NCBI GenBank assembly: GCA_031549705.1
Contig: JAVBPI010000043.1
Span: forward strand, 30,770-94,769
Source of the DNA: Thermoguttaceae bacterium
GTDB taxonomy: Bacteria > Planctomycetota > Planctomycetia > Pirellulales > Thermoguttaceae
DNA: 64,000 bases
Reading direction: 5' to 3'
Positions 5,477-61,116 of the stretch are shown in pieces (positions within the stretch are counted from its first letter, which is position 1; each line of letters starts with the position of its first letter). Made by a program: the position numbers and the translations under genes. The notes under the pieces were generated by a model. The model made no database searches and had not been told where the DNA came from. It saw only the letters and a program-made list of their open reading frames with translations.

Positions 5477-7753
5477 TCATTTCACGGGCTCTTCGGCGAA
5501 CCGTTTTTCGAGCTCCCGGGCGAGAACCGCGTCGTCGGAACCGACCGTCATGAATCGGACCTTGCCGCTCCGATCGAGGATCATCGTCGTCGGGTTGCCG
5601 GTGATTCCGTAATAATTATTGTAATCCTTCAGTCCCTTTTCCTTCGAGAGGAGCAGCGAACCGGTCAGCCACGGATATTTCGTTTTTGCGACGAACTTTT
5701 GGAGCGTTTCGAGATCGTCGCCGCAACTGTAGGCGATCATTTCATAACCTTGCGGCTTGTATTTCTCGTAAAGCGTTTTCATGTGCGGAAATTCCTTGAG
5801 GCAGGATCCGCATTGCGTGTTCCAGAAATTGACGAGCACGACCTTGCCGCGAAGTTCTTTCACGTCGACTTTCGAGCCGTCGATCAACATCGTTTCGAAT
5901 TCCATTTCGGTACCGGGCAGCATCAGACGTCGCAGAACGTTTTCGAGTCGCCGGGCTTCCTGTTGCGCTTCGAGATTCTTGGAGGCGGCGAATACCGGAA
6001 TCACTTGTTCGATGTATGAGCGGCTCAGTTGCGTCGAGTACTCCGCATCGATATCTTCAAGGGCGTTGAGAAAGAACATCGCATGCATTCTTAGATTTTC
6101 CCAAAAACTATCCGGCGCCTGCTTGCTAATCGCAAGAAATCGATTCGTGATTTCTTGCGCATATTCCGCTTGGCCGGTTTTCATCTTTTTCAAGTATTGT
6201 TGCATCTGGTACAACACTTCCATTTTTCGAAAAAGAACATTGTGATGAAATCCCTTTTCTTTCGACTTGAGCAATTCATCCGCTAGGGCATCGACTTCCC
6301 TGTACATGATTTCCGGCTGCACTTCAGGATTTGCTTCAGCTTTTTCCCGTGCGATATCCGCAAGAATGTCAAGTTTTTCGTAAAGCAGCACAGCATGCTG
6401 CACGGCGGGCAACGCATCGGAGGAAAGCAATAAATCGATGAGCGGCAAACGGAATTTCGGTGGAGCGACCGTGGCGATCTTCGTTTGGAAAGCGATCAAA
6501 TCTTTCAGCGTTACAGGGAGTTCTCCATCGGTCGCTTCCTGCCATTTTTTTTGATCTTCTTCGGATTTCTTTCGAACGTCGTCGTCGATGCCGCGAATTT
6601 TTTCGACGATTTCCGTAATCGTTTTCGACTGTTCCGGAAAGAGCGGCTTGAGCCCTTCGAGAATCACCGGGCTGATCTTGTCCGCACGGACACGAACCAC
6701 CGTTCCTTCCCGGTCGACAAGAAACGCGAATTCATATGTACCGAAATGCTCCGCGTAATCGATCCAATCTTTCGAACCGCGGTTTCCGTAACGAGTCGTC
6801 ACGATCCACGGTGCGCCGTCGCTCTTGAGCTTCTGTCGGGCGATTTCCGGATTGTCGTGACTGTAAAGGATGATCTCAAGCCCATCCTTTTTCAACGTCC
6901 CGGCAAGTTCATGGAGCGGGACGATTTTTTCCTGTTCCCATTGATACGGTGCCGTGACGATCAGGACGACTTTTCCTTTCAGGTTTTTCACGTCGACCGG
7001 TTTGTCGTCCACATCAACGGACTTGAACTCCATTGGTTTGCCCGCCATATCGAGACGACGGAGCGAGTTGAGAGCACTTTGGGCGCAATAACGGAGAAGA
7101 TCGTGTTTCGTTCGCTTGACGTCGGCTTCGAGAACGGGCCGCAGCTTTTCGACGGTCGTACGAATCAAACCGAGCGAGCCGTCCGGATCGAACCTTTCGG
7201 CGTACTCGACGATAATGGTCGGCAACTGCTCGTTCTCGATGCGTTTTTCGTCGATAAAATACTTGTTGATCGACGGCGCCCAGCGGTCGACGAGTTCGGA
7301 GAACGCCTTGGCTTGTTCTTCCTTTTCGAGTTTTGAAATCTCGTTATTCGCTTTGTAAAACCGTTCGGCAATCCAACGGCGATACCGGGGGTAATCCTGT
7401 ACCGATTCGAGAAACACCTCGTACTTTTTGTCGTATTCCGCTTCGTCGAAACCGTAACGAAAAATCAGGCCGAGATGCTTTTGGTCCGTGAGATATTTCT
7501 TGTCGTCCGACGAAAGATCGGACGACTTCAAAAGCGGTTCGACAAGAGCGAGGATTTCGTCTCCCAAACGCATTGCATACGCCGGATAGTCGTCGAGCGT
7601 TCCGCAGTACGGCTTTTCGGTCAGCGCAGCGACCTGCGACCGAGCGTCGTCGACCGTTTCAGCCGGGAGATATTTCGCAACAACAAACAGGAACAAACAC
7701 GATAAAGCAATCGGTCGAAGCATAAAATTTGCCTTTGACACATTGAGCAACAT
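5477..7753 (-). CDS. Secreted protein with two thioredoxin-fold (TlpA/redoxin-like) modules
   Basis: The C-terminal module has KGKVVLVNFWNTQCGSCLKEFP with an intact CxxC motif. The central module (KGKVVLIVTAPYQWEQE) has the same fold signature but no cysteines. A signal peptide is present. An alternative ATG at 7723 (MLRPIALSCLFLFVV) is equally plausible. Confidence 0.8.
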   Translation of the reverse strand: MLLNVSKANFMLRPIALSCLFLFVVAKYLPAETVDDARSQVAALTEKPYCGTLDDYPAYAMRLGDEILALVEPLLKSSDLSSDDKKYLTDQKHLGLIFRYGFDEAEYDKKYEVFLESVQDYPRYRRWIAERFYKANNEISKLEKEEQAKAFSELVDRWAPSINKYFIDEKRIENEQLPTIIVEYAERFDPDGSLGLIRTTVEKLRPVLEADVKRTKHDLLRYCAQSALNSLRRLDMAGKPMEFKSVDVDDKPVDVKNLKGKVVLIVTAPYQWEQEKIVPLHELAGTLKKDGLEIILYSHDNPEIARQKLKSDGAPWIVTTRYGNRGSKDWIDYAEHFGTYEFAFLVDREGTVVRVRADKISPVILEGLKPLFPEQSKTITEIVEKIRGIDDDVRKKSEEDQKKWQEATDGELPVTLKDLIAFQTKIATVAPPKFRLPLIDLLLSSDALPAVQHAVLLYEKLDILADIAREKAEANPEVQPEIMYREVDALADELLKSKEKGFHHNVLFRKMEVLYQMQQYLKKMKTGQAEYAQEITNRFLAISKQAPDSFWENLRMHAMFFLNALEDIDAEYSTQLSRSYIEQVIPVFAASKNLEAQQEARRLENVLRRLMLPGTEMEFETMLIDGSKVDVKELRGKVVLVNFWNTQCGSCLKEFPHMKTLYEKYKPQGYEMIAYSCGDDLETLQKFVAKTKYPWLTGSLLLSKEKGLKDYNNYYGITGNPTTMILDRSGKVRFMTVGSDDAVLARELEKRFAEEPVK

Positions 7754-7796
7754 AAAGCTCGGCGACGCGCTGCGAGGCTAAAACGAAGCGTCTTGC

Positions 7797-9071
7797 TTAC
7801 AGCGGCGGCTGCCCACCCATTCCCGGTTGGGCTCCACCCATTCCCGGTTGGGCTCCGCCCATCATTCCCGGTTGGGCTCCGCCCATCATTCCCGGTTGGG
7901 CTCCGCCCATCATTCCCGGTTGAGCTCCACCCATCATTCCCGGTTGAGCTCCGCCCATCATTCCCGGTTGGGCTCCACCCATCATTCCCGGTTGAGCTCC
8001 ACCCATCATTCCCGGTTGAGCTCCACCCATCATTCCCGGTTGAGCTCCACCCATCATATTCGGGTCGGTTCCCATACCAGGCTGCATTCCGCCTCCCATC
8101 ATATTATTCGGGTCGGTTCCCATCCCCATTCCCTGTTGCATTCCGCCCCCCATTTGCATTTGCTGTTGCTGCAAGGCGAGCTGTTCGGCGGCAACTTTCG
8201 GGTCCCAGCTTCGAATATCGTCTTCGGTGAAGTCGATGCCATCGTATCCGGCGGACCAAACCGCGGGTTTCCGGTCACCGGTCTTGGGATTGACTCCGTT
8301 GACCAGCGTGTACTCATATCGGAACGGCAAACCCCACGGATCCAACGGAACCGAGTCGCTCGTCAAATAGGGGTCGGGGCGTTTCCGGGCGTTCACATAA
8401 AGCTGCGGATTGTAGGTCGGTTGCGTCCATCCGGAACCGACCATTCCGGTCTGTCCGCTCATCATTCCGGGTTGGCCCCCCATCATGTTATTCGGGTCGG
8501 TTCCCATGCCCATGCCGGGTTGCATGCCGTTCCCCATCATATTCGGGTTGGCGCCCATTCCCCCCATTCCGGTTATTCCACCGGGGGGCGTGTTCATATT
8601 CATGTTGCCGCCGACCGGCGTCGCTCCGGCACCGCCCATATTCGGATCGGTCCCCATTCCCATGTTAGGCTGCATTCCGCCCATTCCCTGGCCGAACGCT
8701 TCCGCGCCGCCGACAGGGGTTGCGCCCATTCCCATTCCGGCGTTCGGATCGTTCGGATTAGCGGTTCCCGGCTGCATCGGCATTCCGGTACCGGTCTGCC
8801 CTTCGTTCTGTGGAATGTAAATCAACGCGTTCAACCCCTGTTCCGTGGTCGGAAACGCCCCGTGGTCGACGAAATACGCCTGAAGTGCTTTTTCGAGGTT
8901 CTTCACCCACGATTCCGCGATTCGGACGTTCGATTTGTTCCGGTACGACATCACCGTCGGAGCGAGAATCGCGAACAACGCCACGATGATCGCCAACACA
9001 ACGAGGAGCTCAAGCAGCGTAAAGCCGGAGTTGTCCTGCCGCGCCGATGGTCGAATATTCGATAAATTCAT
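7797..9071 (-). CDS. Type II secretion pseudopilin GspG-like protein with Met/Gly/Pro/Gln/Asn-rich insert and repeat tail
   Basis: It has a prepilin cleavage/methylation motif (G-FTLLELLVVLAIIV). GspG core blocks are present: FPTTEQGLNALI, DPWGLPFRYEY and VWSAGYDGIDFTEDDIRSWD. A low-complexity insert of about 150 aa sits after the N-terminal helix region. The C-terminal tail ends in about ten GAQPGM(M)G units. Confidence 0.85.
   Translation of the reverse strand: MNLSNIRPSARQDNSGFTLLELLVVLAIIVALFAILAPTVMSYRNKSNVRIAESWVKNLEKALQAYFVDHGAFPTTEQGLNALIYIPQNEGQTGTGMPMQPGTANPNDPNAGMGMGATPVGGAEAFGQGMGGMQPNMGMGTDPNMGGAGATPVGGNMNMNTPPGGITGMGGMGANPNMMGNGMQPGMGMGTDPNNMMGGQPGMMSGQTGMVGSGWTQPTYNPQLYVNARKRPDPYLTSDSVPLDPWGLPFRYEYTLVNGVNPKTGDRKPAVWSAGYDGIDFTEDDIRSWDPKVAAEQLALQQQQMQMGGGMQQGMGMGTDPNNMMGGGMQPGMGTDPNMMGGAQPGMMGGAQPGMMGGAQPGMMGGAQPGMMGGAQPGMMGGAQPGMMGGAQPGMMGGAQPGMMGGAQPGMGGAQPGMGGQPPL
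7812..8050 (-). repeat. Tandem 24-bp (two 21-bp) coding repeat encoding (GAQPGMMG)n
   Basis: There are eight near-identical units (cccatcattcccggttgRgctccRc on the plus strand) plus two shorter units lacking one Met codon. Variation is only R = A/G at two positions. Confidence 0.9.
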
Positions 9072-11267: not shown

Positions 11268-11286
11268 TTTTAACAACAAAAACAAC

Positions 11287-11549
11287 GTCATCCCCGCGCA
11301 GGCGGGGACCTAGACGAAAAAGATCCAACCGTTTGCATCCGTAATTTACGGACAAATACAATCAATATCGTGTGCAACGGTTCAACGAAGTTTTAATGTG
11401 GTGGCAATAAAAAATGAACGGAGCCGTGTTTTGTACGGAGCGTAGCATAGTTCAAAACACGGCGGACCATCCAAACAGTCGGTCAAGCACCGGATCAAAT
11501 TTTATCACCTGCTCAATATTCTCTAGATCCCCGCCTGCGCGGGGATGAC
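11287..11549. repeat. REPIN/MITE-like element, repeat family 1
   Basis: It has 28-nt terminal inverted repeats, GTCATCCCCGCGCAGGCGGGGACCTAGA (11287-11314) and its complement (11522-11549), with one mismatch. Each arm contains a CCCCGC/GCGGGG hairpin. The interior carries the ~120-nt module also found at 49971-50090. Confidence 0.8.
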
Positions 11550-15000: not shown

Positions 15001-15044
15001 GGGGCTCGGCGGGGAAGAGGATTATGTACGGAGTACCAAACTCC

Positions 15045-15184
15045 GTCATCCCCGCGAAGGCGGGGACCTAGAGAATAGACGCGAACATTTTTTGCACACG
15101 GATCCAATGGGATTCGTCCGTTGATTGCGTGTGCAAACGGTCAACAAAACCATTCGTCCAGGTCCCCGCCTTCGCGGGGATGAC
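15045..15184. repeat. REPIN-like element, repeat family 1
   Basis: The arms are GTCATCCCCGCGAAGGCGGGGACCTAGA (15045-15072) and its inverted copy (15157-15184). It lies between the rplS stop and the start of the downstream gene. Confidence 0.8.
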
Positions 15185-15206
15185 GAAAAATGATTTCACT
15201 GTCGAT

Positions 15207-15647
15207 TTATTCGGCCTTGGGGGCTTTCGCGGTCTTTTGCTTCCCCTTCGAACCGCGACGAACCTTCTTGACGGCGGTCTCGGCGGTCACTTTGCGTTCG
15301 ACACGACGTTCCTTGAGACGGACCGCTTTGCCGACACGATCACGGAGGAAGTACAGCTTCGCACGGCGAACCACGGCGCTGCGGACGACTTCGACCTTGG
15401 CGATGCGCGGCGAGTGGAGCGGGAACTTTCGTTCGACCCCTTCACCGGCAACGATTCGTCGCACCGTGAACATTTCACGCGTTCCGCCGCCGCTGCGGGC
15501 GATCACGACGCCGTTGAAAATTTGAGTCCGTTCTTTTTCCCCTTCGAGGATCCGGCAATGAACGTTGACGGTATCACCGATTTCAAACTCCGAGACTTCC
15601 GCCTTCTTGCTGTGCGCCTCGACGATATTAAGTAGTTTCTGGGACAT
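15207..15647 (-). CDS. rplS: 50S ribosomal protein L19 with basic C-terminal extension
   Basis: The sequence MSQKLLNIVE..FEIGDTVNVHCRILEGEKERTQIFNGVVIARSGGGTREMFTVRRI..GVERKFPLHSPRIAKVEV is unmistakably L19. The ATG is at 15647. The listed start at 15737 reads through the heptamer array. Confidence 0.95.
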   Translation of the reverse strand: MSQKLLNIVEAHSKKAEVSEFEIGDTVNVHCRILEGEKERTQIFNGVVIARSGGGTREMFTVRRIVAGEGVERKFPLHSPRIAKVEVVRSAVVRRAKLYFLRDRVGKAVRLKERRVERKVTAETAVKKVRRGSKGKQKTAKAPKAE

Positions 15648-15655
15648 GATATAAA

Positions 15656-15752
15656 CGTGGTTCGTGGTTCGTGGTTCGTGGTTCGTGAAGAATTCATCAT
15701 CGACGGCCGGCTTTCTAAAGCACGAACCACGAATCACGAATCACGAATCACG
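15656..15752 (-). repeat. Inverted pair of heptamer arrays at the trmD/rplS junction
   Basis: On the plus strand, 15656-15687 is (GGTTCGT)x4, which reads ACGAACC on the coding strand and ends 8 nt before the rplS ATG. 15721-15752 is CACGAAC/CACGAAT units and overlaps the trmD stop. A 33-nt spacer lies between them. Confidence 0.9.
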
Positions 15753-16447
15753 GTAATCAAATCTGGTCTTTTTTCTTTCGTTCGTTCCAAACTGTTTTGC
15801 TCTCTCCAGCGGGCGATTTCGGCGTGGTTGCCGCTGAGGAGCACTTCGGGAACTTCAAGTCCCCGGTATTCTCTGGGCCTCGTGTAATGAGCACAGTCCA
15901 ATAATCTCTTTCCGGGACAAACACCGTCGGACGAAAACGAATCAAACCGATTCGAGTCTTCGTCCCCCAGCACACCGGGGATCAATCGCATCACGGCTTC
16001 GATCACGACCATCGCCGCGACCTCACCGCCGTTGAGCACATAATCGCCGAGGGAAATCTCCTCCGGTTTCAGGAGGTTCACGATTCGCTCGTCAAATCCC
16101 TCGTACCGTCCGCAAAGCATCAGCAAGCGTTTTTCGTTCGCCAATTCCTCCGCAAGCCGCTGGTCGAACCGTCGTCCTTGCGGCGTAAACATCAACAAAC
16201 GACCCGATTCAGGTTCACGGCTCCGAACGTCTTCGACAGACGGCACAACACAATCGGCTTTCAGCACCATTCCTGGACCGCCGCCAAACGGTCTGTCGTC
16301 CATCTTCGCATGCTTATCGGTCGCCCAATCCCGCATGTTGTGCAACCGGACCGCCAGTTTTTCCGCGTCGATCGCCGCTTTCAACATGCTTTCCGAGAGA
16401 AAACCCTCAAAAATTCCCGGGAATAACGTGAAAACATCGAAGTCCAT
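15734..16447 (-). CDS. trmD: tRNA (guanine37-N1)-methyltransferase
   Basis: Motifs present are MDFDVFTLFPGIF, DDRPFGGGPGMVLK, LMLCGRYEGFDERI and SLGDYVLNGGEVAAMVVIEAV. The last codons (..IRDS-stop) are encoded by the heptamer array. Confidence 0.95.
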   Translation of the reverse strand: MDFDVFTLFPGIFEGFLSESMLKAAIDAEKLAVRLHNMRDWATDKHAKMDDRPFGGGPGMVLKADCVVPSVEDVRSREPESGRLLMFTPQGRRFDQRLAEELANEKRLLMLCGRYEGFDERIVNLLKPEEISLGDYVLNGGEVAAMVVIEAVMRLIPGVLGDEDSNRFDSFSSDGVCPGKRLLDCAHYTRPREYRGLEVPEVLLSGNHAEIARWREQNSLERTKEKRPDLITVIRDS

Positions 16448-16493: not shown

Positions 16494-16961
16494 CTATTCC
16501 GCGGCCGCTTCAGTGGCTACCGGTGCTGCAACCGCTTCTTGAACGGCAGCTTGGGCCTTCGCTTCGACGGCTTCAGCGGCTTTTGCGGCCTCGGCGGCTT
16601 TTTCCTTCTTCGACTTGACCTTCAACGCCGGCGGCAGTTCGGTCGGAACCGACGGACGACGACGCAACGTACCAAGTCGGGCGACGGCCGCTTTCTGCGC
16701 TTCGAGGTGGGTTCCCTTCGTGCCGTATTTCTTGACGAGCGTCGCAACGCGGTCCGACATTTGGGCACCGACGGAGACCCAATAGTCGATCCGTTCGTTG
16801 TTCAGAACGGCGCGGGCGTCCGTTTCGGGGACCATCGGATCGTAGTATCCGACTTCTTCGATCACTCGACCGTCACGCGGGGAGCGAGCGTCGGTAACGC
16901 AAACACGGAAAAACGGTCGATGCCGCCGTCCCATCATCTTCATGCGAATTTTGACTGCCAT
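16494..16961 (-). CDS. rpsP: 30S ribosomal protein S16 with Ala/Glu/Lys-rich C-terminal extension
   Basis: The sequence begins MAVKIRMKMMGRRHRPFFRVCVTDARSPRDGRVIEEVGYYDP. The ATG is at 16961. The listed longer ORF translates the heptamer array as (EPRTTNH)n and is not credible. Confidence 0.95.
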   Translation of the reverse strand: MAVKIRMKMMGRRHRPFFRVCVTDARSPRDGRVIEEVGYYDPMVPETDARAVLNNERIDYWVSVGAQMSDRVATLVKKYGTKGTHLEAQKAAVARLGTLRRRPSVPTELPPALKVKSKKEKAAEAAKAAEAVEAKAQAAVQEAVAAPVATEAAAE

Positions 16962-17059
16962 GGTTCGTGGTTCGTGGTTCGTGGTTCGTGGTTCGTGGTT
17001 CGTGGTTCGTGGTTCGTGGTTCGTGGTTCGTGGTTCGTGGTTCGTGGTTCGTGGTTCGT
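16962..17059 (-). repeat. 14 perfect tandem copies of GGTTCGT (ACGAACC on the coding strand) directly abutting the rpsP start codon
   Basis: The 98 nt equal 14 x 7 with no mismatch, and there is no spacer before the ATG. Confidence 0.95.
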
Positions 17060-17073
17060 ATACCACGGCACGT

Positions 17074-17445
17074 CTACGACTCGCGATCCTGTTTAACTTT
17101 TGTACGTTTTTTGATTGAAACAGCCAGTCGATGCAGCATTGCCGATATTCGATTCGTTGTCGCAATACATTGTTTTCCGAAATCTTCGGGAAAATACCCG
17201 ATATTAATTCCGACATACAGTTGCGAGCGAACTTCGCCGCACGATCCCTTTGCATATCGGAGGAACAACAATAAATCTTTCGAAGTGTCTCGATCTGATC
17301 CTTCTGCAATGTTGCTTGAAATGGAAAGAGCAGCACGAGTAATCTGATCCCTGAATCCCCTGTCTTTCAGTGTAGATGTACTGGAATAAATATCCGCAGC
17401 CAATTGAACGGCGACTTTCCAAACATCCAAATCTTCAAAACGCAT
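17074..17445 (-). CDS. Four-helix-bundle protein (23S rRNA intervening-sequence protein / Avd-like family)
   Basis: Family hallmarks as I recall them are present: MRFEDLDVWKVA, SISSNIAEG and GSCGEVRSQL. It is about 120 aa. I chose the ATG at 17445. The listed start at 17463 is a GTG inside the repeat arm. Confidence 0.8.
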   Translation of the reverse strand: MRFEDLDVWKVAVQLAADIYSSTSTLKDRGFRDQITRAALSISSNIAEGSDRDTSKDLLLFLRYAKGSCGEVRSQLYVGINIGYFPEDFGKQCIATTNRISAMLHRLAVSIKKRTKVKQDRES

Positions 17446-17460
17446 TGGTTCCCTCTTCTT

Positions 17461-17492
17461 CACGAATCACGAACCACGAATCACGAATCACG
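17461..17492 (-). repeat. Heptamer array (CACGAAT/CACGAAC units), inverted partner of 16962-17059
   Basis: The sequence is cacgaatcacgaaccacgaatcacgaatcacg. It overlaps the ffh stop codon, so ffh also ends ..RDS-stop. Confidence 0.9.
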
Positions 17493-18968
17493 TTTTTTCT
17501 TCTCTTTCTTCTTTTTTTCTTTTTCTCGTTTTTTGCGGGCTTCTTCTTTTTCTTTCGTGGTAAGCCGTTTGCCGGTTCCTTTTTTGACTTGCTGGATTCC
17601 GGCGGTCGGGTTGTTCGACATCATTTGGGTGAGCTGCTGCATCGCGCCCATTCGGTCCCGCATGTTCATCGACGACATCGACTTCATCATTTCGGCCATC
17701 GGGAGAAACGCCTTGATGAGGTCGCTCACCTGATTCGGTTGCACCCCGGCTCCGGCGGCTATTCGGCGTCGACGGCTCTGGTCGATCACCTTCGGATTCC
17801 GTTTTTCCTCGGCCGTCATCGAGTCGATGATTCCGCCGACCCGTCGCATTTCGTCGTCGGCGTCGACATTCATGGAGCCCATCATTTTCGTGATTTGGCC
17901 CATTCCGGGAATGAGTCCCAGCACTTTGCTGAACGAACCGAGCCGTTTCGCCTGGCCCATTTGGTTCCGGAAGTCGTCAAGCGTGAACTCCCCTTTGGCA
18001 AGGCGTTCCTGCTGCTTTTCGAGCGCTTCCTTGTCGAGCTTTTCGGTTGCCTGCTCGATGAGCGAGAGCATGTCCCCCATACCGAGAATTCGGCCCGCCA
18101 TCCGGTCGGGGTGGAACTCCTCAAGGGCTTCGACCAGTTCACCGGTTCCGATATACTTGATCGGAACCCCGGTAATATGTTTGACGGAAAGAGCTGCTCC
18201 ACCACGAGCATCACCGTCGAGCTTCGTGAGAATCACGCCGTCGAGTTCCAACGCCTCGTTGAACGCTTTGGCGGAGTTCACGGCGTCCTGACCGGTCATC
18301 GAGTCGACGACGAAATAGACCTGATCCGGCTTGATCTGCTGCTCGATCCGCTGGAGCTGCTTCATCAGCTCCTCGTCGATATGGAGACGACCGGCGGTAT
18401 CAAGAATCAGGACGTCGACGCCGAGCGATTGGGCTTTCTTGACGGCGTTCAGGCAAACGAGAACGGGATCTTTGTTTTCGCGGTCGGTGTGGACCGGAAC
18501 GCCGATCGATTTACCGAGAATTTCGAGCTGGTCGATCGCTGCCGGACGCTGAAGGTCGGCAGCAACGAGCATCGGTTTGAGATTGCGCTTGACGAGCAGC
18601 TTGCCCAATTTACCGCATGTCGTCGTTTTTCCGGAGCCCTGCAAGCCGCAGAGCATAATCACGCTGAGCGAACCTTTCGGCTTGAGATGCAGGTCGTGAT
18701 CGACGGGCCCCATAAGGGCGATCAACTCTTCGTGGACGATCTTGACGAGCTGTTCGGTCGGGTCGAGGAGTTTCAGGACATGTTCGCCGAGAGCCTGCTC
18801 GGTGATTCTCGCCATGAAATCCTTGACGACGGGGAAGCTGACGTCCGCTTCAAGGAGCGATTGGCGAACGAGTTCGAGCCCTTCGCGCATATTCGATTCC
18901 GTGAGCTTTCCCTTCCCTCGAAGGGTCCGAATCGCGGACATCAAATTGTCTTGGAGGTTTTCGAACAT
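17481..18968 (-). CDS. ffh: Signal recognition particle protein Ffh with Lys-rich tail
   Basis: It has the N domain, GTPase motifs GLQGSGKTTTCGKL, DTAGRL and TKLDGDARGG, and a Met-rich M domain. Confidence 0.95.
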   Translation of the reverse strand: MFENLQDNLMSAIRTLRGKGKLTESNMREGLELVRQSLLEADVSFPVVKDFMARITEQALGEHVLKLLDPTEQLVKIVHEELIALMGPVDHDLHLKPKGSLSVIMLCGLQGSGKTTTCGKLGKLLVKRNLKPMLVAADLQRPAAIDQLEILGKSIGVPVHTDRENKDPVLVCLNAVKKAQSLGVDVLILDTAGRLHIDEELMKQLQRIEQQIKPDQVYFVVDSMTGQDAVNSAKAFNEALELDGVILTKLDGDARGGAALSVKHITGVPIKYIGTGELVEALEEFHPDRMAGRILGMGDMLSLIEQATEKLDKEALEKQQERLAKGEFTLDDFRNQMGQAKRLGSFSKVLGLIPGMGQITKMMGSMNVDADDEMRRVGGIIDSMTAEEKRNPKVIDQSRRRRIAAGAGVQPNQVSDLIKAFLPMAEMMKSMSSMNMRDRMGAMQQLTQMMSNNPTAGIQQVKKGTGKRLTTKEKEEARKKREKEKKKKEKKKRDS

Positions 18969-22762: not shown

Positions 22763-24496
22763 TCAGTTGGCGTATTTCATGCGAAGATAATCGAACATGT
22801 CTTTGTTGTCCGGTGAGAAATGATTGGCTCCGCTTTCCAAGTCCGGAAGCACTTTGTTGAACCAATCCTTCGCGGAGCTTGTTCGACCGACCGTATCCAG
22901 TGCCTTGGCGAGGTGCATGACGTAAATCGGACGCTGGCATGAAAGTTCGACGCATCGTTCCAACACGGGAATCGCTTCGTCCGGTCGACTGTCGTTCATG
23001 AGAACGAGTCCTTTCGAGTCGAGCAGGATCACGTTGTCCGCCTGATCCTTTTTCATGGCGGCGTTGATGATATTCAACGCGCCTTCGTTGTCTTTCATCG
23101 TCGTTGAATAGATCATCGCAAGATTGTTCTGAAACAAGACATCGTCCGGTTTCGCTTTCAATCCGCGTTCATACAACGGAATCGCCCGCTCCGGTTTTCC
23201 ACGAACGATCCAGAAGTCGGCCAACGGAACCAGTACGTCGGGGTTGTCGATCTGTTTCGGTTCGGCGCCGACGTCTTCAAGTCGGTTATCGAACGTCACT
23301 TCGAGCTTTCCGGTCATCGGGCCCGTCAATTTGACGCCGCCGATGTCGGTAAGGTTTGCCCATTCGACATAGTATCCGCCCTTGATCGGCGTGATTTTGG
23401 GGGGCGCTGCCGGAGCTTGGGGATCGGTTGCCGGATCATATTTTTCCGCAGCGGACAACGAAGGGGTCGTTCCAACATGTTCGGCACCGGTTGCGGAAAG
23501 TCGTTCGCCGCTTCCACGGAGTTGCGTGGACGCTTCGGACAAAATCTTTTGAACTTCGGCGGCACGACTATCACCGGTTCCGACCGATTGAAGTCGTTCG
23601 GCGGCTTGCGTCAGAATTCCCTGGATTTCACCGGCGCGGGTTTGACCCGTCGGCGTCGCTTTCAGATTTCGGACGGCTTCGATCAGCGCCCCTTGAATTT
23701 CGGTATCCCACGCCTCGCCGGTTGCCGTCAGGTTCAACCGTTTTCCGGCTTGGGAGATTGCTCCTTGAACTTCATCGTTCCAACCGGCATGGGCGCCGGC
23801 GTTGGCGGAAAGACGCTCACCGCTTCCACGGAGTTGCGAGGTCGCTTCCCCCAGAATTTTCTGGACTTCGGCAGCACGGGCATCACCGGAACCAACCGAT
23901 TGGAGCCGTTCGGCGACTTTCGCCAAGGCTCCTTGAATCTCGTCGCCGCGTGTCTGGCCGGTCGAGGTCGCTTTCAACCGCTTGGAAGCCTCGGAGAGCG
24001 CTCCCCGGATTTCGTTGTCCCATGCTTCACCGGACGCTGTCGATGTCAGCCGCTTGCCGGTTTCGGAAAGAATTCCCTGAACTTCATCGTTCCAACCGGC
24101 GTGGGCGCCGGCGTTGGCGGAAAGACGCTCACCGCTTCCACGGAGTTGTGTGGAAACCTCCGAAAAAATCTTCTGAACTTCAGCGGCCCGCGCTTCGCCG
24201 GACTTGACCGATTGCAACCGTTCGGCGGCTTTCGTCAACACCCCTTGAATGTCTTCGCCGCGTGTTTTGCCGGTCGACGTTGCTTTCAAATTTCGGACCG
24301 CTTCGACGAGCGCTCCTTGAATCTCGGTATCCCACGCTTCGCCGGACGCCGTCGATTGGAGCCGTTTTTCAGCTTCGGAAAGGACACGCTGAACGTCGTC
24401 GTTCCAATTCGACGCGTCTTGAGCCGACAAAAGGCGGCCGACAACCAAAACAACCACGCCAAGGACGAAAGGAAGGGAGAATCGAATCGTTTTCAT
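22763..24496 (-). CDS. Secreted repeat protein with C-terminal TPR domain
   Basis: It has a signal peptide, three tandem 104-aa units each built from four ~26-aa helical sub-repeats (..EIQGAL.EA.KRL..T..G..), and TPR-like helices (AIPLYERGLKAKPDDVLFQNNLAMIY..). Confidence 0.8.
   Translation of the reverse strand: MKTIRFSLPFVLGVVVLVVGRLLSAQDASNWNDDVQRVLSEAEKRLQSTASGEAWDTEIQGALVEAVRNLKATSTGKTRGEDIQGVLTKAAERLQSVKSGEARAAEVQKIFSEVSTQLRGSGERLSANAGAHAGWNDEVQGILSETGKRLTSTASGEAWDNEIRGALSEASKRLKATSTGQTRGDEIQGALAKVAERLQSVGSGDARAAEVQKILGEATSQLRGSGERLSANAGAHAGWNDEVQGAISQAGKRLNLTATGEAWDTEIQGALIEAVRNLKATPTGQTRAGEIQGILTQAAERLQSVGTGDSRAAEVQKILSEASTQLRGSGERLSATGAEHVGTTPSLSAAEKYDPATDPQAPAAPPKITPIKGGYYVEWANLTDIGGVKLTGPMTGKLEVTFDNRLEDVGAEPKQIDNPDVLVPLADFWIVRGKPERAIPLYERGLKAKPDDVLFQNNLAMIYSTTMKDNEGALNIINAAMKKDQADNVILLDSKGLVLMNDSRPDEAIPVLERCVELSCQRPIYVMHLAKALDTVGRTSSAKDWFNKVLPDLESGANHFSPDNKDMFDYLRMKYAN
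23476..24418 (-). repeat. Three tandem 312-bp coding repeats
   Basis: Near-identical stretches recur, for example ggcgccggcgttggcggaaagacgctcaccgcttccacggagttg near 23789 and 24101. The protein period is 104 aa. Confidence 0.8.
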
Positions 24497-25680: not shown

Positions 25681-25869
25681 GTACAAAGTTAAGGTAATAA
25701 TGTTCGTGAAAAGGGACAAGGTATCGTCATCCCCGCGCAGGCGGGGACCCAGAGATCCGTTTTTCATGGGCTCTTGCACCCGTTGTTCACGGCTGCAAAC
25801 GGATGTTGGCCTTTTTGTCTAGGTCCCCGCCTGCGCGGGGATAACGAACATTATTTCCTTAACTTTGTA
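25681..25869. repeat. Family-1 REPIN nested inside a second 26-nt inverted repeat
   Basis: The family-1 arms are at 25726-25753 and 25818-25845. The outer arms are GTACAAAGTTAAGGTAATAATGTTCG (25681-25706) and its imperfect complement (25844-25869). Confidence 0.8.
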
Positions 25870-25870
25870 C

Positions 25871-25937
25871 GAGATGCTATTCACAGGGTTTGAGTCCGGA
25901 GTACCGGACGTTGCCGCCCGGCGGTCGGCAACCTACC
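25871..25937. repeat. Half copy of repeat family 2
   Basis: The sequence gagtccggagtaccggacgttgccgcccggcggtcggcaacctacc is the reverse complement of the left half of the 55767-55877 element. Confidence 0.7.
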
Positions 25938-39496: not shown

Positions 39497-39617
39497 GGAC
39501 ACGAGAAAAGAGTGTTCGACATTCAAAACGATACAACGTGATGCATTCTATTGTATCGTTTCGATACATTTTTGGGAAGGAGGTTGAGAAAAAGAGCGTC
39601 GGTAGTCGACCGGGTAA

Positions 39618-39720
39618 GGTAGGCTGCCGACCGCCGGGCGGCAGCGTCCGGTACCCCGGACCTGAATCAGAATCCGGTGCGGAGTACCGCACGTCGTCGC
39701 CCGGCGGTCGACGACATACC
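39618..39720. repeat. REPIN/MITE-like element, repeat family 2
   Basis: The left arm is GGTAGGCTGCCGACCGCCGGGCGG and the right arm is an imperfect complement. Internal hairpins are GTCCGGTACCCCGGAC and GTGCGGAGTACCGCAC. Confidence 0.75.
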
Positions 39721-39744
39721 TGATCGGTCAACTTCGTTTTGTCC

Positions 39745-47854: not shown

Positions 47855-49972
47855 ATGAAACAGCATCGACAGCCGACGGCATGGGTGGACGCCGCCGTCG
47901 GACTTCTCGTTACGGCAACGATTTTCGGAAACGGCGATCTCAACGAACGGTCCGGCGCGTTCCATCTGCTCGCCGTTTTTTGGATCCTCGCCGCCGCCGT
48001 CCGGGTGATCGTTCCGCTGCTCGGCAAACAGGACGCCGGCCTGAGATTTTTTCGTTGCGATATTCCAGCCTATCTTTTCTTCGTTTGGGTTGCCGTGTCG
48101 ATCACCTGGAATTTGCTCCCCGGCAACGGCGGCGCACCGAGACCGGGTTTGAACATGCTCTCCGTTTGGCTCGCCCTGGGAGCGGCGTGGTTTCTCTTCC
48201 GACAAACACTCGAACGTCCGGAAACACGCAACGCGGCGCTGCGATTGATCCTTGCCGTCGTTCTCGCCGAAGCCGCGACGGGACTCCACCAACAGTTCGT
48301 CGAGTTCCCGCAAATTCTGCACGATTTCCGGACGAACCCCGTCGCAACCGTTGCCGCGGCCGATCCGTCGCTGGAACAGGGAACGCCGGATTGGGACCGT
48401 TTCGTCAAACGACTGGAAACGATGACGCCAATGGGAACCTATCCACTGTCGAATTCGCTCGGCGGTCTCCTTGCCGTCGGGTTCGTGTTGATGCTCGGCG
48501 TCTATTTTTCAAAACCGTCCGTAAATTCCTCGAAGCCCGTCCCGTCCTGGCGAAAAATTCTCGGCGGAGCCTTGCTCGCCGTAGTGTTGTTCTGTTTCGT
48601 GCTGACGAAATGCCGTAGCGGATTCGTCGCCGTTGCCGTCGGCCTTGCGCTGTTCGGCTGGTTTTCGTTCCCCCGTTTCAACGCGCGCTGGACGAAACGA
48701 ATACTGATCGGAACCGCCGTCGCCGTCGTGTTTGTCGCCGCCGTATCCGTCGCTGTCCCCGGAAAATCGATGATTTCCGGCGCAAAAAGATCGCTCGGTT
48801 TCCGTCTCGAGTATTGGCAGGCGTCGACGGCGATGATTGCAGACCACCCGCTCTTCGGTTGCGGCAGTGGAAATTTCAAACAGGCGTACACAAAATACAA
48901 GTTGCCGTGGGCAAGCGAAGAGATTGCCGATCCGCACAACTTCGCCGTCGAACTCGCCGCCGTCGCCGGACTTCCGGCGCTCGCTCTTTTCGTAACGGCC
49001 GTCGTTGGGCTGATGTTTCGTCTCGGATTTTCGCGATGCACGGCCAAAACGCAAGCGGCATCCCCGGCGGACGCAAACACGAAACTCTTCTATTGGTCCG
49101 GTCTCGGCGGCGGCGTTCTTGCGTTCGTCGTGTCGCTTTACGCCGAATCGCAAATCGCTTTCGAGCCGATCCTTTTCCTGCTGGTCGCGTTTCCGTTGGT
49201 CGATCTGGCGTTCGGCGACCGTCGTGAAATTCCTCCGTGGGTTCCGGCAATCGGGCTTGTCGTTTTTCTCGTTCACTTATCGGCGGCCGGTGGAATTTCC
49301 GCGACGAATTCGGCGATACTCGTTTGGCTCCTCGCGGCAATCCTCTTGAACGAAACGGCCCCGACCGACGGAACGGAAAACAAGAAGGTGTGCGGCATGT
49401 TTCTGTGCGTTTTTGTCGGGTCGCTTCTCGCCGTCAACCATTTCGGCCTGCAACCGATGCTCCGGTCGTTGCCGTTCCTTCTCGATGCCGACGAAGCCCG
49501 GGACGTTCCCCGCCGCATCGAGTCGTTACGCAAAGCGGCGGCCGTCGATCCATGGTCGGCGACGATCCAGGAGCGACTTTCGACCGAAGCGTTTCGCGGT
49601 TGGTTTGCACATCCGAACGATAAAGCATGGAAAGCGACGACGTGCGAATCATTGGAGAAATCGCTCGAACTCTCGCCTCGTTCGGCGGGACTGCGGTTCA
49701 TGTATGCGGAGCGGCTCTTCGCCATGTACGAAAAAACCGGCGACGTCGCTGTGCGGGACCGGGCTTTGGAACTTTACCGTGAAGCGATCGACCGGTATCC
49801 GAACCATGCGAAGATTCGGGGACCGTACGCCGTCGCACTCTGGAAATCCGGACAAAAAGAGGAATCGCTCCGCCAACGGGACGAAGCATTGCGGCTCGAC
49901 GACATCATGCCGCATGACGACCAGAAACTTGCCGACGAGTTACGAAAACGGCTGGTCGAGTTTTATTATTGA
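47855..49972 (+). CDS. O-antigen ligase (Wzy_C)-family polytopic membrane protein with C-terminal TPR domain
   Basis: It has at least 10 TM helices, the ligase-type loop ..PHNFAVELAAVAGLPAL.., and a TPR tail. The ATG is at 47855. Confidence 0.8.
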   Translation: MKQHRQPTAWVDAAVGLLVTATIFGNGDLNERSGAFHLLAVFWILAAAVRVIVPLLGKQDAGLRFFRCDIPAYLFFVWVAVSITWNLLPGNGGAPRPGLNMLSVWLALGAAWFLFRQTLERPETRNAALRLILAVVLAEAATGLHQQFVEFPQILHDFRTNPVATVAAADPSLEQGTPDWDRFVKRLETMTPMGTYPLSNSLGGLLAVGFVLMLGVYFSKPSVNSSKPVPSWRKILGGALLAVVLFCFVLTKCRSGFVAVAVGLALFGWFSFPRFNARWTKRILIGTAVAVVFVAAVSVAVPGKSMISGAKRSLGFRLEYWQASTAMIADHPLFGCGSGNFKQAYTKYKLPWASEEIADPHNFAVELAAVAGLPALALFVTAVVGLMFRLGFSRCTAKTQAASPADANTKLFYWSGLGGGVLAFVVSLYAESQIAFEPILFLLVAFPLVDLAFGDRREIPPWVPAIGLVVFLVHLSAAGGISATNSAILVWLLAAILLNETAPTDGTENKKVCGMFLCVFVGSLLAVNHFGLQPMLRSLPFLLDADEARDVPRRIESLRKAAAVDPWSATIQERLSTEAFRGWFAHPNDKAWKATTCESLEKSLELSPRSAGLRFMYAERLFAMYEKTGDVAVRDRALELYREAIDRYPNHAKIRGPYAVALWKSGQKEESLRQRDEALRLDDIMPHDDQKLADELRKRLVEFYY

Positions 49973-50090
49973 GCAGGTGATAAAATTTGATCCGTTGTTT
50001 AACGATTGTCGTGTATGGTCCGTCGCGTTTTGAACTCCGCTACGCTCCGTACCAAACACGACTCCGCTCATTTTTTATTGCCACCACATT
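49971..50090. repeat. ~120-nt conserved module (second, inverted copy of 11395-11513)
   Basis: The sequence gagcaggtgataaaatttgatccg...cattttttattgccaccacatt aligns with the reverse complement of 11395-11513 with scattered substitutions. It starts at the stop codon of the upstream gene. Confidence 0.8.
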
Positions 50091-55517: not shown

Positions 55518-55766
55518 ACGTTTGATTCGCGTCGCGGATCACACCGTTGGAAAGGCGGGATTTCAGCGTATGGCGTATTCTGTATAGGATAAACCGTGGA
55601 GGTTGAAAAAACAACCGAAAATTTTCCAATCCGTTTCCGCAATCGATTTCCCCGGTCAACGGAACCGGCAAAGTCGGCGCAATCGTCAACACCGGGCGAA
55701 TTGCGGACGTTCTCCCTTGGTTTTATCGTTATTTATGGTAAAGTAGCTTTAATCGAATATAGACAA

Positions 55767-55877
55767 GGTAGGTTGCCGACCGCCGGGCGGCAACGTCCGG
55801 TACTCCGGACTCGGCGCTTGTGAGTAGCATCTAGTGCGGGATACCGCACGCAGCCGCCCGGCGGTCGGCTGCCTACC
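55767..55877. repeat. REPIN/MITE-like element, repeat family 2
   Basis: It has the arm GGTAGGTTGCCGACCGCCGGGCGG and an inverted arm with 2 mismatches. It ends 11 nt before the surE ATG. Confidence 0.8.
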
Positions 55878-55888
55878 TTTTTGCCTCC

Positions 55889-57194: not shown

Positions 57195-57199
57195 GATGC

Positions 57200-57266
57200 G
57201 TTAGCCGCGTCGGCCCCCGACGCGCGGAATGTTAGGGGAAGCGCATCGGGGGCCGATGCGGCTAAC
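57200..57266. repeat. REP doublet (REPIN), repeat family 3
   Basis: It has the same arms as 56737-56802 and contains the stop codon of the RAYT gene. Confidence 0.85.
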
Positions 57267-57834
57267 GGGAATAGGGAACCACGAACGGCCAATGTTGAGG
57301 TTTGAGCCCATCGCGGATGGGGTTTTGCTCGACGTATTCAATGGCACGACGAACGTCGTCATCGGAATCGAGCCAGACCTCCCAATGGCCGCGAGCCCAC
57401 GGTGAGTGAACGCCGTCAAGCGGCCGTAGGTTTTCATGATTCATCTGTTTCGAGGCACGACTTTTCAGGTGTCCGACAATATCGGTGAACGGTTTTTGAT
57501 GCCGCTCGACAACAAGGTGAACGTGATTCGGCATGACGACGCAAGCGAAGACGCCGTAATGGGACTCATCGACAGCGACATGAAAACCGCGAGCGGTGGC
57601 GCGGGCCTGGAGTCCGTTCAGGACGACGGGCGGGACTTCGAGTTGTTTTTTGGCGTTAAGGCGATGTTTCACGTCATGGAAATCGCGGGCGAGGCTGCGG
57701 CTGGTATCGACTTTCGTCGCGGCTCCGGCATATTCGTACAATTTTCGGGAGCCGACGTAGATCGACCACGAACCGCGAGGATCGTTCGGCAACCAAAAAC
57801 CGTGGCACCCGAAAGTGATATGCGCCGCCAACAT
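57262..57834 (-). CDS. REP-associated tyrosine transposase (RAYT; IS200/IS605 Y1 HUH family)
   Basis: It has the HUH motif in VVMPNHVHLVV and a catalytic Tyr helix (RRAIEYVEQNPIRDGL). It is 190 aa and is flanked on both sides by family-3 REP doublets. Confidence 0.85.
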   Translation of the reverse strand: MLAAHITFGCHGFWLPNDPRGSWSIYVGSRKLYEYAGAATKVDTSRSLARDFHDVKHRLNAKKQLEVPPVVLNGLQARATARGFHVAVDESHYGVFACVVMPNHVHLVVERHQKPFTDIVGHLKSRASKQMNHENLRPLDGVHSPWARGHWEVWLDSDDDVRRAIEYVEQNPIRDGLKPQHWPFVVPYSR

Positions 57835-57857
57835 GGGGAAATTTTCGTAAATTTTTC

Positions 57858-57925
57858 GTTAGCCGCATCGGCCCCCGATGCGCGGAATTAACGGGGGAAG
57901 CGCGTCGGGGGCCGACGCGGCTAAC
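57858..57925. repeat. REP doublet (REPIN), repeat family 3
   Basis: It has the same arms and lies 24 nt upstream of the RAYT ATG. Confidence 0.85.
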
Positions 57926-57930
57926 GGGGT

Positions 57931-61086: not shown

Positions 61087-61116
61087 GAAAGCGTATCGGG
61101 GGCCGATGCGGCTAAC
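61087..61116. repeat. Half copy of repeat family 3 (REP)
   Basis: The sequence is gaaagcgtatcgggggccgatgcggctaac. Confidence 0.6.

Follow-up and report, generated by a model that had tools for sequence, protein, structure and literature searches.

The window analysed here is a 64 kb stretch of Thermoguttaceae DNA, in which a 123-codon open reading frame (ORF) for a four-helix-bundle (4HB) protein is located between ffh and rpsP. All genes of interest lie on the minus strand, in the order ffh, a 33-nt array, the 123-codon ORF, a 99-nt perfect array, rpsP, trmD, and rplS. The two arrays are built of heptamers in inverted orientation and correspond to the 5' and 3' arms of a predicted stem, which we designate the occupied stem. 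The exact bracketing of the ORF between ffh and rpsP by inverted heptamer arrays, which an earlier reading of the sequence (the original prediction) had claimed, was seen in both the tandem-repeat and the pattern scans. Two details were amended: the gene order is that of the minus strand, and the arm mismatches in the mRNA sense are A·C rather than G·U. The features of the locus are as follows.

17481..18968, minus strand: ffh (SRP54 GTPase), the upstream host gene (Pfam SRP54/SRP_SPB/SRP54_N)
17460..17492, minus strand: 5' arm of the occupied stem, mRNA sense GTGATTC GTGATTC GTGGTTC GTGATTC GTG, 4.7 heptamers (Tandem Repeats Finder, inverted-repeat pairs, and predicted fold)
17446..17459, minus strand: 14-nt leader from the 5' arm to the 4HB start codon, AAGAAGAGGGAACCA... 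(sequence)
17074..17445, minus strand: 4HB ORF, ATG start, TAG stop, 123 aa (PF05635/TIGR02436/NF008912); S23p/XCC0516/BT_0352 family, Avd-like fold
17060..17073, minus strand: 14-nt spacer from the 4HB stop codon to the 3' arm, ACGTGCCGTGGTAT (sequence)
16961..17059, minus strand: 3' arm of the occupied stem, ACGAACC in 14.1 copies, 100% perfect (Tandem Repeats Finder score 198, pattern search, and sequence)
16494..16961, minus strand: rpsP (ribosomal protein S16), the downstream host gene (Pfam Ribosomal_S16, E 3.4e-25)

The ORF reads in the same direction as its neighbours ffh and rpsP, and a gap of 14 nt separates it from the array on each side. The arms are 32 nt long and 91% complementary in the inverted-repeat scan, and their copy numbers are uneven (14 units on the 3' side and 4.7 on the 5' side). 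On the plus strand, the 3' arm reads as GGTTCGT in 14.1 copies and the 5' arm (17460-17492) as the inverted array CACGAAT/CACGAAC in 4.7 copies. The 3' arm directly abuts the ATG of rpsP (16959-16961). At the other end, the last codons of ffh and its TGA stop (17481-17483) are encoded by the array, which gives a C-terminus of ...KKKRDS* as read from the sequence. The heptamer dimer has 23 matches in the window, compared with 1.28 expected from shuffles (0/100 shuffles reach 23). The window and its closest homologue (P0001, locus L081) have an identical arm/leader junction, GTGAAGAA.

A consensus scan, which is weak evidence, placed the sole promoter-like site upstream of ffh and found neither a promoter nor a terminator inside the cassette, on the minus strand between ffh and rpsP. 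No Rfam family, rRNA included, matched anywhere in the window, and the locus had no match among the PADLOC anti-phage defence models and the PHROGs phage models.

The 4HB protein

The ORF had been assigned to the four-helix-bundle family of Avd and of the ORFs in 23S rRNA intervening sequences (IVSs), and the profile searches agree, with scores above the curated cutoffs for PF05635 (E 1e-28, 100 bits, cutoff 33.8) and TIGR02436 (E 1.5e-26, 92.7 bits, cutoff 24). It also matches NF008912 (E 1.4e-41, 141.2 bits, cutoff 124) and, in a phmmer search, the XCC0516 structure (PDB 2GSC, E 4.5e-12). The AlphaFold2 model, built with 13 sequences, has a pLDDT of 95 and four helices (residues 7-23, 29-50, 55-82, and 87-122). 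In the Foldseek search with this model, 2GSC was the best match (TM 0.84/0.88), followed by 2RLD (BT_0352, annotated as "S23 ribosomal protein family"; TM 0.76/0.83). Third was 4DWL, the Avd protein of a Bordetella phage diversity-generating retroelement (DGR), with a TM of about 0.72-0.8, and the 8UB7 series was also matched. The subfamily alignment spans 50-70% identity with 33 invariant columns, and the window protein has all family-invariant residues. It belongs with the non-DGR members of the family; XCC0516 and BT_0352 are its closest relatives by sequence and structure.

Small proteins of the 4HB/S23p/Avd-like type rank among the most frequent "hypothetical" families of Bacteroidota, Cyanobacteria, Planctomycetota, and Deltaproteobacteria-type lineages (Desulfobacterota and Geobacter relatives). 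To our knowledge, the role of the family outside DGRs has had no explanation since the ORFs of rRNA IVSs were found ~30 years ago.

A link to DGRs, which the original prediction had raised, is not supported in the window. If the gene were a remnant or component of a DGR, the 4HB protein would act as Avd; the two share the four-helix-bundle fold, and PF05635-like proteins are the commonest DGR accessory (PMC10053308). However, sequence identity to Avd is ~10%, the closest sequence and structure relatives are non-DGR proteins, and the gene sits in an operon of housekeeping genes. A rough motif screen (not an HMM search) of the 64 kb found no reverse transcriptase (RT) motif, Y[AILMV]DD, in any ORF of at least 200 aa. 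No direct repeat resembling a template repeat/variable repeat (TR/VR) pair was found near the gene. We therefore regard a DGR origin as extremely improbable.

Packaging of 4HB genes between arrays

A scan of metagenome contigs with the subfamily alignment gave 80 more 4HB loci at 49-59% identity, and the comparison set comprised ~90 other loci overall. Flanking inverted repeats were scored by local alignment of the 150 nt upstream with the reverse complement of the 150 nt downstream, with a cutoff score of ≥30, and 830 other ORFs from all loci and the window served as control genes. Strong inverted repeats flank 36 of 65 4HB genes as opposed to 12 of 830 other ORFs (odds ratio 85, Fisher p 5e-36). 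By Tandem Repeats Finder, 55/66 metagenome 4HB genes have arrays on both sides, compared with 32/830 other genes, and when the loci were clustered at 80% identity, arrays on both sides were kept in 38/45 clusters. The flanking inverted arrays that had been foreseen for 4HB genes in general are thus found at most of them.

The period of the arrays is 7 in 43/58 upstream and 50/62 downstream cases, and the remainder is mostly 8, 14, or 21. The units vary by locus (GAAAGGC, CAAGAGA, CAGCTGA, GAGGGGC, CCAACTG, AAGCTTG, and others), and the two arms match each other within a locus: the arm match score is ≥30 in 56% of within-locus comparisons and in 7.6% of between-locus comparisons. A typical arm has ~4.5 copies (up to 20-23); at the median, the 5' arm is 23 nt from the ATG and the 3' arm 30 nt from the stop. 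The arms also have a polarity, in that the 5' arms are purine-rich in 45/54 cases (p 7e-7) and the 3' arms pyrimidine-rich in 39/54.

The 4HB genes share the direction of the upstream neighbour in 49/55 cases and that of the downstream neighbour in 46/56, against a background of 63%. The gaps to these neighbours (median 76 nt upstream and 107 nt downstream) are essentially filled by the arrays, which leaves no room for a promoter.

The closest homologue, P0001 (L081, 69% identity), sits between dxr and rseP in the layout array, 4HB gene, array, 9-nt loop, inverted array, with the octamers GTGAATGT/GTGAGCGT. Four other close homologues (P0003, P0004, P0005, and P0007) are each bracketed by inverted GTGR-type 7- or 8-mers; P0003 and P0004 are located between eutN and an aldehyde dehydrogenase gene, and in P0007 a gene with a phosphotransferase system (PTS) EIIA domain follows. 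All five closest homologues, P0001 included, have tandem arrays on both sides with arms of the GTGR type, so that the check for relatives with the same gene but no repeats gave no refutation.

The arrangement extends to finished records from cultured members of other phyla and to viral contigs. In Nostoc sp. ATCC 53789 the 4HB gene is flanked by GGGAAAA/CCCTTTT, in Riemerella anatipestifer by AAGGTTY/AACCTTG, and in Nostoc edaphicum by AGTAGGG x8 / TCCCTAC x5 (flanks of 2486-2854 in L168), which resemble the short tandemly repeated repetitive (STRR) sequences discussed below. AACGTTS arrays surround the gene in two viral contigs, and the units on both sides of the 4HB gene at 355-699 of L102 either equal the published TAACTGA repeat or differ from it by a single step. 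We conclude that an array, a 4HB gene, and an inverted array, with a period of 7 or 8, a lineage-specific unit, and arms matched per locus, are the rule for this family across phyla.

The literature searched contains no description that links 4HB genes to flanking heptamer arrays, save a passing note on the Coxiella IVS. Judged from this literature, family-wide packaging in arrays appears to be undescribed.

Inverted pairs of 7/8-mer arrays number 50 per 292 kb in the 4HB loci and 10 per 736 kb in the Pirellulales loci described below, a ~13-fold difference in density. About half of the pairs in the 4HB loci enclose a 4HB gene. A dozen or more of the others are empty stems with a short loop, and several of these share the same or a closely related unit with a neighbouring cassette.

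Genes other than 4HB genes are occasionally found in a similar setting. Most of them are either ordinary genes between two neighbouring stems or cassettes, such as rpsP (L076 and L022), gmd (L087), and a DegT gene (L119), or insertion sequence (IS) or nuclease genes with inverted repeats of their own. Small genes bracketed by inverted repeats or lying between heptamer arrays were noted at L099 794-1129, L106 350-1030, and L014 3626-4489; they are, respectively, a DUF559 endonuclease-like gene (inverted-repeat score 114), a probable PIN-domain gene (by eye from the translated ORF), and a PDDEXK_2 "transposase" gene. Hairpin packaging may therefore not be exclusive to 4HB cargo.

Two 4HB cassettes are present within 2-3 kb on several contigs (L106, L114, L119, and L126). 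A neighbour set of hexapeptide acetyltransferase, 4HB, and DegT aminotransferase genes recurs in different organisms with different heptamers (L083, L114, and L153), and 4HB genes seem to favour operons for sugar nucleotides and polysaccharides.

The cargo-free stem at trmD/rplS

The trmD/rplS junction of the window bears a matching stem with a 33-nt loop, as had been noticed from the sequence, and this stem is a cargo-free copy of the same element.

15734..16447, minus strand: trmD (Pfam tRNA_m1G_MT); its last codons and TGA stop (15734-15736) come from the 5' arm of this second stem
15721..15752, minus strand: 5' arm of the cargo-free stem, three GTGATTC and one GTGGTTC, a mix of units that matches the occupied stem
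15688..15720, minus strand: loop of the cargo-free stem, 33 nt
15656..15687, minus strand: 3' arm of the cargo-free stem, ACGAACC in 4.6 copies, which stops 5 nt short of the rplS ATG
15207..15650, minus strand: rplS (ribosomal protein L19), downstream of the cargo-free stem (Pfam Ribosomal_L19)

Tandem Repeats Finder gave 4.6 copies in each arm, and the predicted fold has an energy of -48.5 kcal/mol (z = -6.0). Apart from the four arrays of the two stems, the 64 kb contain no inverted pairs of 7/8-mer arrays. The A variant GTGATTC predominates in the 5' arm of each stem, whereas each 3' arm is made up entirely of complements of the G variant. As a consequence, the mismatches are A·C in the mRNA, and in RNA from the opposite strand they would be G·U. 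It is the A variant that gives rise to the TGA stops of ffh and trmD, and Ffh and TrmD both end in an array-encoded ...RDS*. The split between A and G variants in both stems may reflect common descent of the stems or selection.

Just 3' of rplS there is a 29-nt inverted repeat (CGTCATCCCCGCGAAGGCGGGGACC...; 15044-15072 / 15157-15185) that is 97% complementary and spaced by 84 nt. A similar motif is found at L023 7882-7923, and the repeat may represent a terminator region or another dispersed palindrome.

The ffh-rpsP-trmD-rplS junctions in related Pirellulales

By its Ffh sequence, whose best match is 81% identical, the window belongs to Thermoguttaceae/Pirellulales, and we compared it with 80 related Pirellulales ffh loci. 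In 62 of them rpsP lies 3' of ffh, usually together with trmD and rplS, and the spacer is mostly ~50-400 nt, in agreement with the premise of the original prediction that ffh and rpsP are normally adjacent. The comparison of this junction in relatives showed that the 4HB gene is absent, and that several loci have empty arrays of other sequence at the same junctions. By phmmer, none of the 80 loci contains a 4HB ORF, and the window has no second 4HB gene. GGTTCGT/GATTCGT dimers are likewise absent from all 80 loci, which indicates that the unit is lineage-specific. Because, in addition, the nearest relatives have plain, array-free ffh-rpsP spacers of 45-170 nt, the cassette is a lineage-specific insertion.

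Cargo-free inverted heptamer arrays with species-specific units are present in more distant Pirellulales (L006, L015, L019, L022, L027, L041, L051, and L076). At the ffh-rpsP junction, empty stems were found in L027 (AGTGGCC x13 / TCCACTA x11; 6484-6678) and L051 (6477-6614); L006 (7666-7733) and L022 have empty stems at trmD-rplS, and L022 and L076 have them around rpsP (the two stems of L022 are at 6977-7093 and 7776-7881). In the empty stems at ffh-rpsP, rpsP-trmD, and trmD-rplS, the upstream stop codon is often inside the 5' arm and the 3' arm often ends at the next start codon. The ribosomal-protein operon (ffh-rpsP-trmD-rplS) looks like a hot spot for arrays.

These empty stems raise the alternative that the stems are intergenic RNA elements of the host, such as STRR-like signals for processing, stability, or translation, and that the 4HB gene landed in one of them by chance. 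Cargo-free stems of other heptamers at the same junctions (L027, L051, L022, L006, L015, and L076), the window's own empty stem at trmD/rplS, and the gene-free paired arrays between operon genes in Geobacter metallireducens (PMC2700814) are all in line with it. However, the association with 4HB genes is too strong for coincidence (odds ratio 85; 55/66 vs 32/830), the ~13-fold higher density of inverted arrays around 4HB genes is unexplained by it, and the inner arms accompany cassettes into unrelated contexts (see below). Stems at these operon junctions occur in only ~10% of the relatives, which also argues against a conserved operon feature. We consider this explanation quite unlikely.

In a subset of Planctomycetaceae metagenome-assembled genomes (L001, L005, L009, L010, L012, L014, L019, and others), ffh has no downstream rpsP-trmD-rplS within the sequence available, and the operon is broken. 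An A-rich AAAAAGA heptamer/21-mer repeat at the end of these ffh genes encodes a lysine-rich C-terminus.

What moves, and turnover of the arrays

Two pairs of near-identical cassettes in unrelated contexts define the moving unit. The 4HB proteins of L126 and L135 share 96.5% amino acid identity; at the nucleotide level, homology is confined to the ORF and the adjoining arm sequence, ~27 nt on the 5' side and ~44 nt on the 3' side. L135 additionally has truncated copies of both cassette ends. In the L092/L093 pair, the nucleotide homology covers the ORF plus or minus 60 nt. Since the ORF and the innermost 30-60 nt or so of both arms are shared between unrelated contexts, the cassette carries its own arms. 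The original prediction had hinted that the locus might tell what 4HB proteins travel with, and the answer is the heptamer stems. Its idea that the stems are mere landing pads is not supported, as near-identical cassettes bring both inner arm parts along. A site-specific cassette system is likewise unsupported: the boundaries of the shared sequence fall inside the arrays, with no defined termini, no target duplications, and no recombinase. These boundaries suggest that gain and loss proceed by recombination or template switching. If exchange takes place within arrays of the same unit, cargo-free stems such as that at trmD/rplS would be both possible acceptors and possible remnants.

In orthologous cassettes, which have the same flanking genes, the 4HB proteins are 90-95% identical at the amino acid level, about as conserved as the neighbouring enzymes. 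The arrays of such cassettes differ in copy number and unit variant, as seen between L106 and L142 and in the series L115/L120/L124/L138/L139. This pattern points to arrays that turn over fast yet stay complementary, and to purifying selection on the 4HB protein.

The conservation of the protein also bears on whether it is a selfish passenger at all. It might instead be a trans-acting, nucleic-acid-binding regulator of the flanking genes, whose targets are the heptamer hairpins beside its own gene. Such a role would suit the degree of conservation in orthologous cassettes, the clustering of same-unit hairpins around 4HB genes, and the fact that the structural relative Avd sits in a ribonucleoprotein with DGR RNA (PDB 8UB7 series). 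On the other hand, the protein is conserved (50-70% identity, 33 invariant columns) while the units are almost completely different, which makes sequence-specific recognition unlikely, and there are empty stems where no 4HB gene was found nearby. A regulator of this kind is very unlikely in our judgement.

RNA structure and proposed mechanism

Taken together, we favour the interpretation, at a probability of roughly 0.6, that the locus is a promoterless IVS-type cassette: a 4HB ORF with its own inverted heptamer arms, inserted co-directionally and transcribed within the ffh-rpsP-trmD-rplS operon. A 561-nt region of the sense RNA has a predicted fold of -168 kcal/mol (z -4.0), in which the arms form the closing stem. 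In the polycistronic RNA, the arms would pair into a stem of roughly 32 bp. By analogy with rRNA IVSs that carry the same gene family, we infer co-transcription and cleavage of this stem as an RNase III substrate. Once cut, the stem would yield a free 4HB mRNA and two separate messages for ffh and rpsP, and the surplus 3' copies (14 vs 4.7) may leave the rpsP initiation region unpaired. Gain and loss of cassettes could involve recombination or template switching wherever two arrays have a unit in common.

Several observations weigh against this interpretation. The three arm mismatches are A·C in the mRNA sense in both stems of the window. Wobble asymmetry, which we tried as a means of telling which strand's RNA folds, was uninformative: the arm mismatches in 37 loci comprise 31 wobble pairs in the sense and 36 in the antisense RNA, together with 119 transversions. 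Since neither strand shows a wobble bias, covariation of the kind that would favour an RNA stem over a structure at the DNA level is not in evidence. Nor was a recombinase or a mechanism of cassette transfer identified. About 45% of the 4HB genes are without a strong bracket, and in some loci (L081, L116, L131, L091, and L087) the arrays are in direct order or form a complete hairpin on one or both sides. The 4HB gene of Nostoc edaphicum is antisense to its neighbours, between nrdB and nrdA. Cargo-free stems also exist in genomes with no 4HB gene seen nearby, so that arrays can exist without the gene.

The lack of wobble bias leaves room for a DNA-level, non-autonomous mobile element. In such an element, which would be similar to a miniature inverted-repeat transposable element (MITE), the arrays would extrude as single-stranded DNA hairpins or a cruciform and be acted on in trans by an enzyme such as a Y1 transposase of the IS200/RAYT type (RAYT, REP-associated tyrosine transposase; REP, repetitive extragenic palindrome), with the 4HB gene as cargo. 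The window has a Y1_Tnp ORF with REP-like palindromes (57262-57834), cassettes are found in unrelated contexts, and L135 contains truncated cassette ends. In contrast, the RAYT palindromes GCGTCGGCCCCCGACGC are unrelated in sequence to the heptamers, and a RAYT/REP link was rejected on this ground. Homology boundaries inside the arrays, with neither defined termini nor target-site duplications, are also at odds with such an element. Moreover, the cassettes are strongly co-oriented with the host genes and their arms have a purine/pyrimidine polarity, both of which suggest that it is the transcribed strand that is constrained. A DNA-level element is therefore unlikely, and the promoterless cassette within the operon transcript remains the interpretation that we prefer.

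In the window and in several Pirellulales stems, the 5' arm offers a stop codon in every reading frame. As a general reason for the period of 7, this fails, since a stop is found in 18/47 5' units and 24/47 3' units, compared with 31% of random heptamers.

Comparison with known systems

The IVSs of 23S rRNA genes are located in helix 25 or 45. Those of Leptospira, Coxiella burnetii, and the Xanthomonas type resemble the window locus in that a long terminal stem encloses, in its loop, a gene of the same protein family, which reads in the same direction as its highly expressed host transcript. The inverted repeats of the window enclose a sense ORF, and their 32-nt arms (91% complementary) exceed the length of about 20 bp expected of an IVS stem. 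In the window, however, the host is an mRNA operon (ffh-rpsP) instead of 23S rRNA, the location that defines an IVS. Of the claim that this is an IVS-like cassette in an mRNA operon, the anatomy (a 4HB ORF in a stem loop, in sense orientation) therefore stands and the 23S location does not. The Coxiella IVS has a 28-bp terminal stem, and its S23p ORF is preceded by three to four tandem heptamers (GACAGAT) whose number varies among strains; the first of these repeats is the site of RNase III cleavage (PMC4990558). The arms described here differ in being long tandem arrays of up to 14-23 units, and the 4HB gene is intact and conserved, whereas the Coxiella IVS gene is decaying.

Cyanobacterial STRR heptanucleotide repeats were reportedly described by Mazel et al. 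in 1990. TAACTGA intergenic repeats are found in Beggiatoaceae, Cyanobacteria, and Bacteroidetes (PMC4679880), and Geobacter metallireducens has paired octa-/heptanucleotide arrays on opposite strands between adjacent operon genes (PMC2700814). Like the arrays of the window, these repeats are tandem 7-8-nt units in intergenic regions of operons, which often end just before a start codon or overlap the end of the upstream ORF. They differ in that they were described without a link to 4HB genes and were read as binding sites for regulators, for S1/Csp/CsrA, or for IHF/HU. The window unit GTGATTC/GTGGTTC (complement ACGAACC) matches none of the units described for STRR1-3, TAACTGA, or Geobacter.

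REP/BIME-RAYT systems (BIME, bacterial interspersed mosaic element) and MITEs share with the locus short hairpin-forming repeats between co-transcribed genes and dispersed empty copies, and a RAYT-like gene is present in the window. REPs, however, are single imperfect palindromes without an ORF, whereas the window has tandem arrays. Integron gene cassettes are similarly small promoterless ORFs with an imperfect inverted repeat (the attC hairpin) that are expressed by read-through. In contrast to integrons, there is no integrase or attI platform here, the cassettes are single and dispersed in ordinary operons, and the inverted repeat brackets the ORF, whereas attC comes after it.

Implications

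These results give the 4HB family a defined genetic anatomy: its genes are almost always packaged between inverted heptamer arrays, lie co-directionally in ordinary operons, and move as the ORF plus arms. They extend the IVS concept from rRNA to mRNA and offer a candidate explanation for intergenic heptamer repeats (STRR, TAACTGA, and the Geobacter "regulator sites") that have so far been interpreted ad hoc. The cassettes split essential operons such as ffh-rpsP, can provide upstream genes with stop codons, and form the 5' leaders of downstream genes, a point of relevance to annotation and to models of how operons are expressed.

A broader and more speculative idea, which we hold tentatively and think rather doubtful, is that 4HB genes with heptamer arrays constitute a phylum-spanning, unrecognised class of mobile promoterless "hairpin cassettes". 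The 23S IVSs would be the rRNA-resident members of this class, and the STRR, TAACTGA, and Geobacter arrays as well as the empty stems would be cargo-free forms or remnants. The 4HB protein would be a factor encoded by the element itself that generates, homogenises, or copies the arrays by working on their hairpins, either as RNA or as DNA and possibly, in the manner of Avd, together with a polymerase or RT.

Other repeats in the window

The RAYT-like IS200/Y1-transposase ORF (57262-57834, minus strand; PF01797, E 2.5e-06) is part of a unit at 57199-57926, in which a doublet of 27-nt REP-like palindromes (CGTTAGCCGCGTCGGCCCCCGACGCGC) is located on each side of the ORF. The outer and inner pairs are each 100% complementary and are unrelated to the heptamers. 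A further copy of the REP-like palindrome is at 61091-61116.

Two tandem repeats are located inside ORFs of the minus strand. A 24-bp repeat in 10 copies (95% matches) at 7818-8057 lies in an ORF similar to type II secretion G/pilin proteins (7797-9071), where it encodes an 8-residue repeat; the protein has an N-terminal methylation motif. A 312-bp repeat in 2.9 copies (75% identity) at 23493-24407 lies within the ORF of a tetratricopeptide-repeat (TPR) protein (22763-24496).

Finally, dispersed similarities of 60-125 bp, 79-91% identical and in both orientations, are present at 11395-11518, 49967-50090, 11286-11342, 25789-25937, 39616-39721, and 55766-55879. The pair 11395-11518 / 49967-50090 stands alone, while the other copies interconnect and may represent a separate group.

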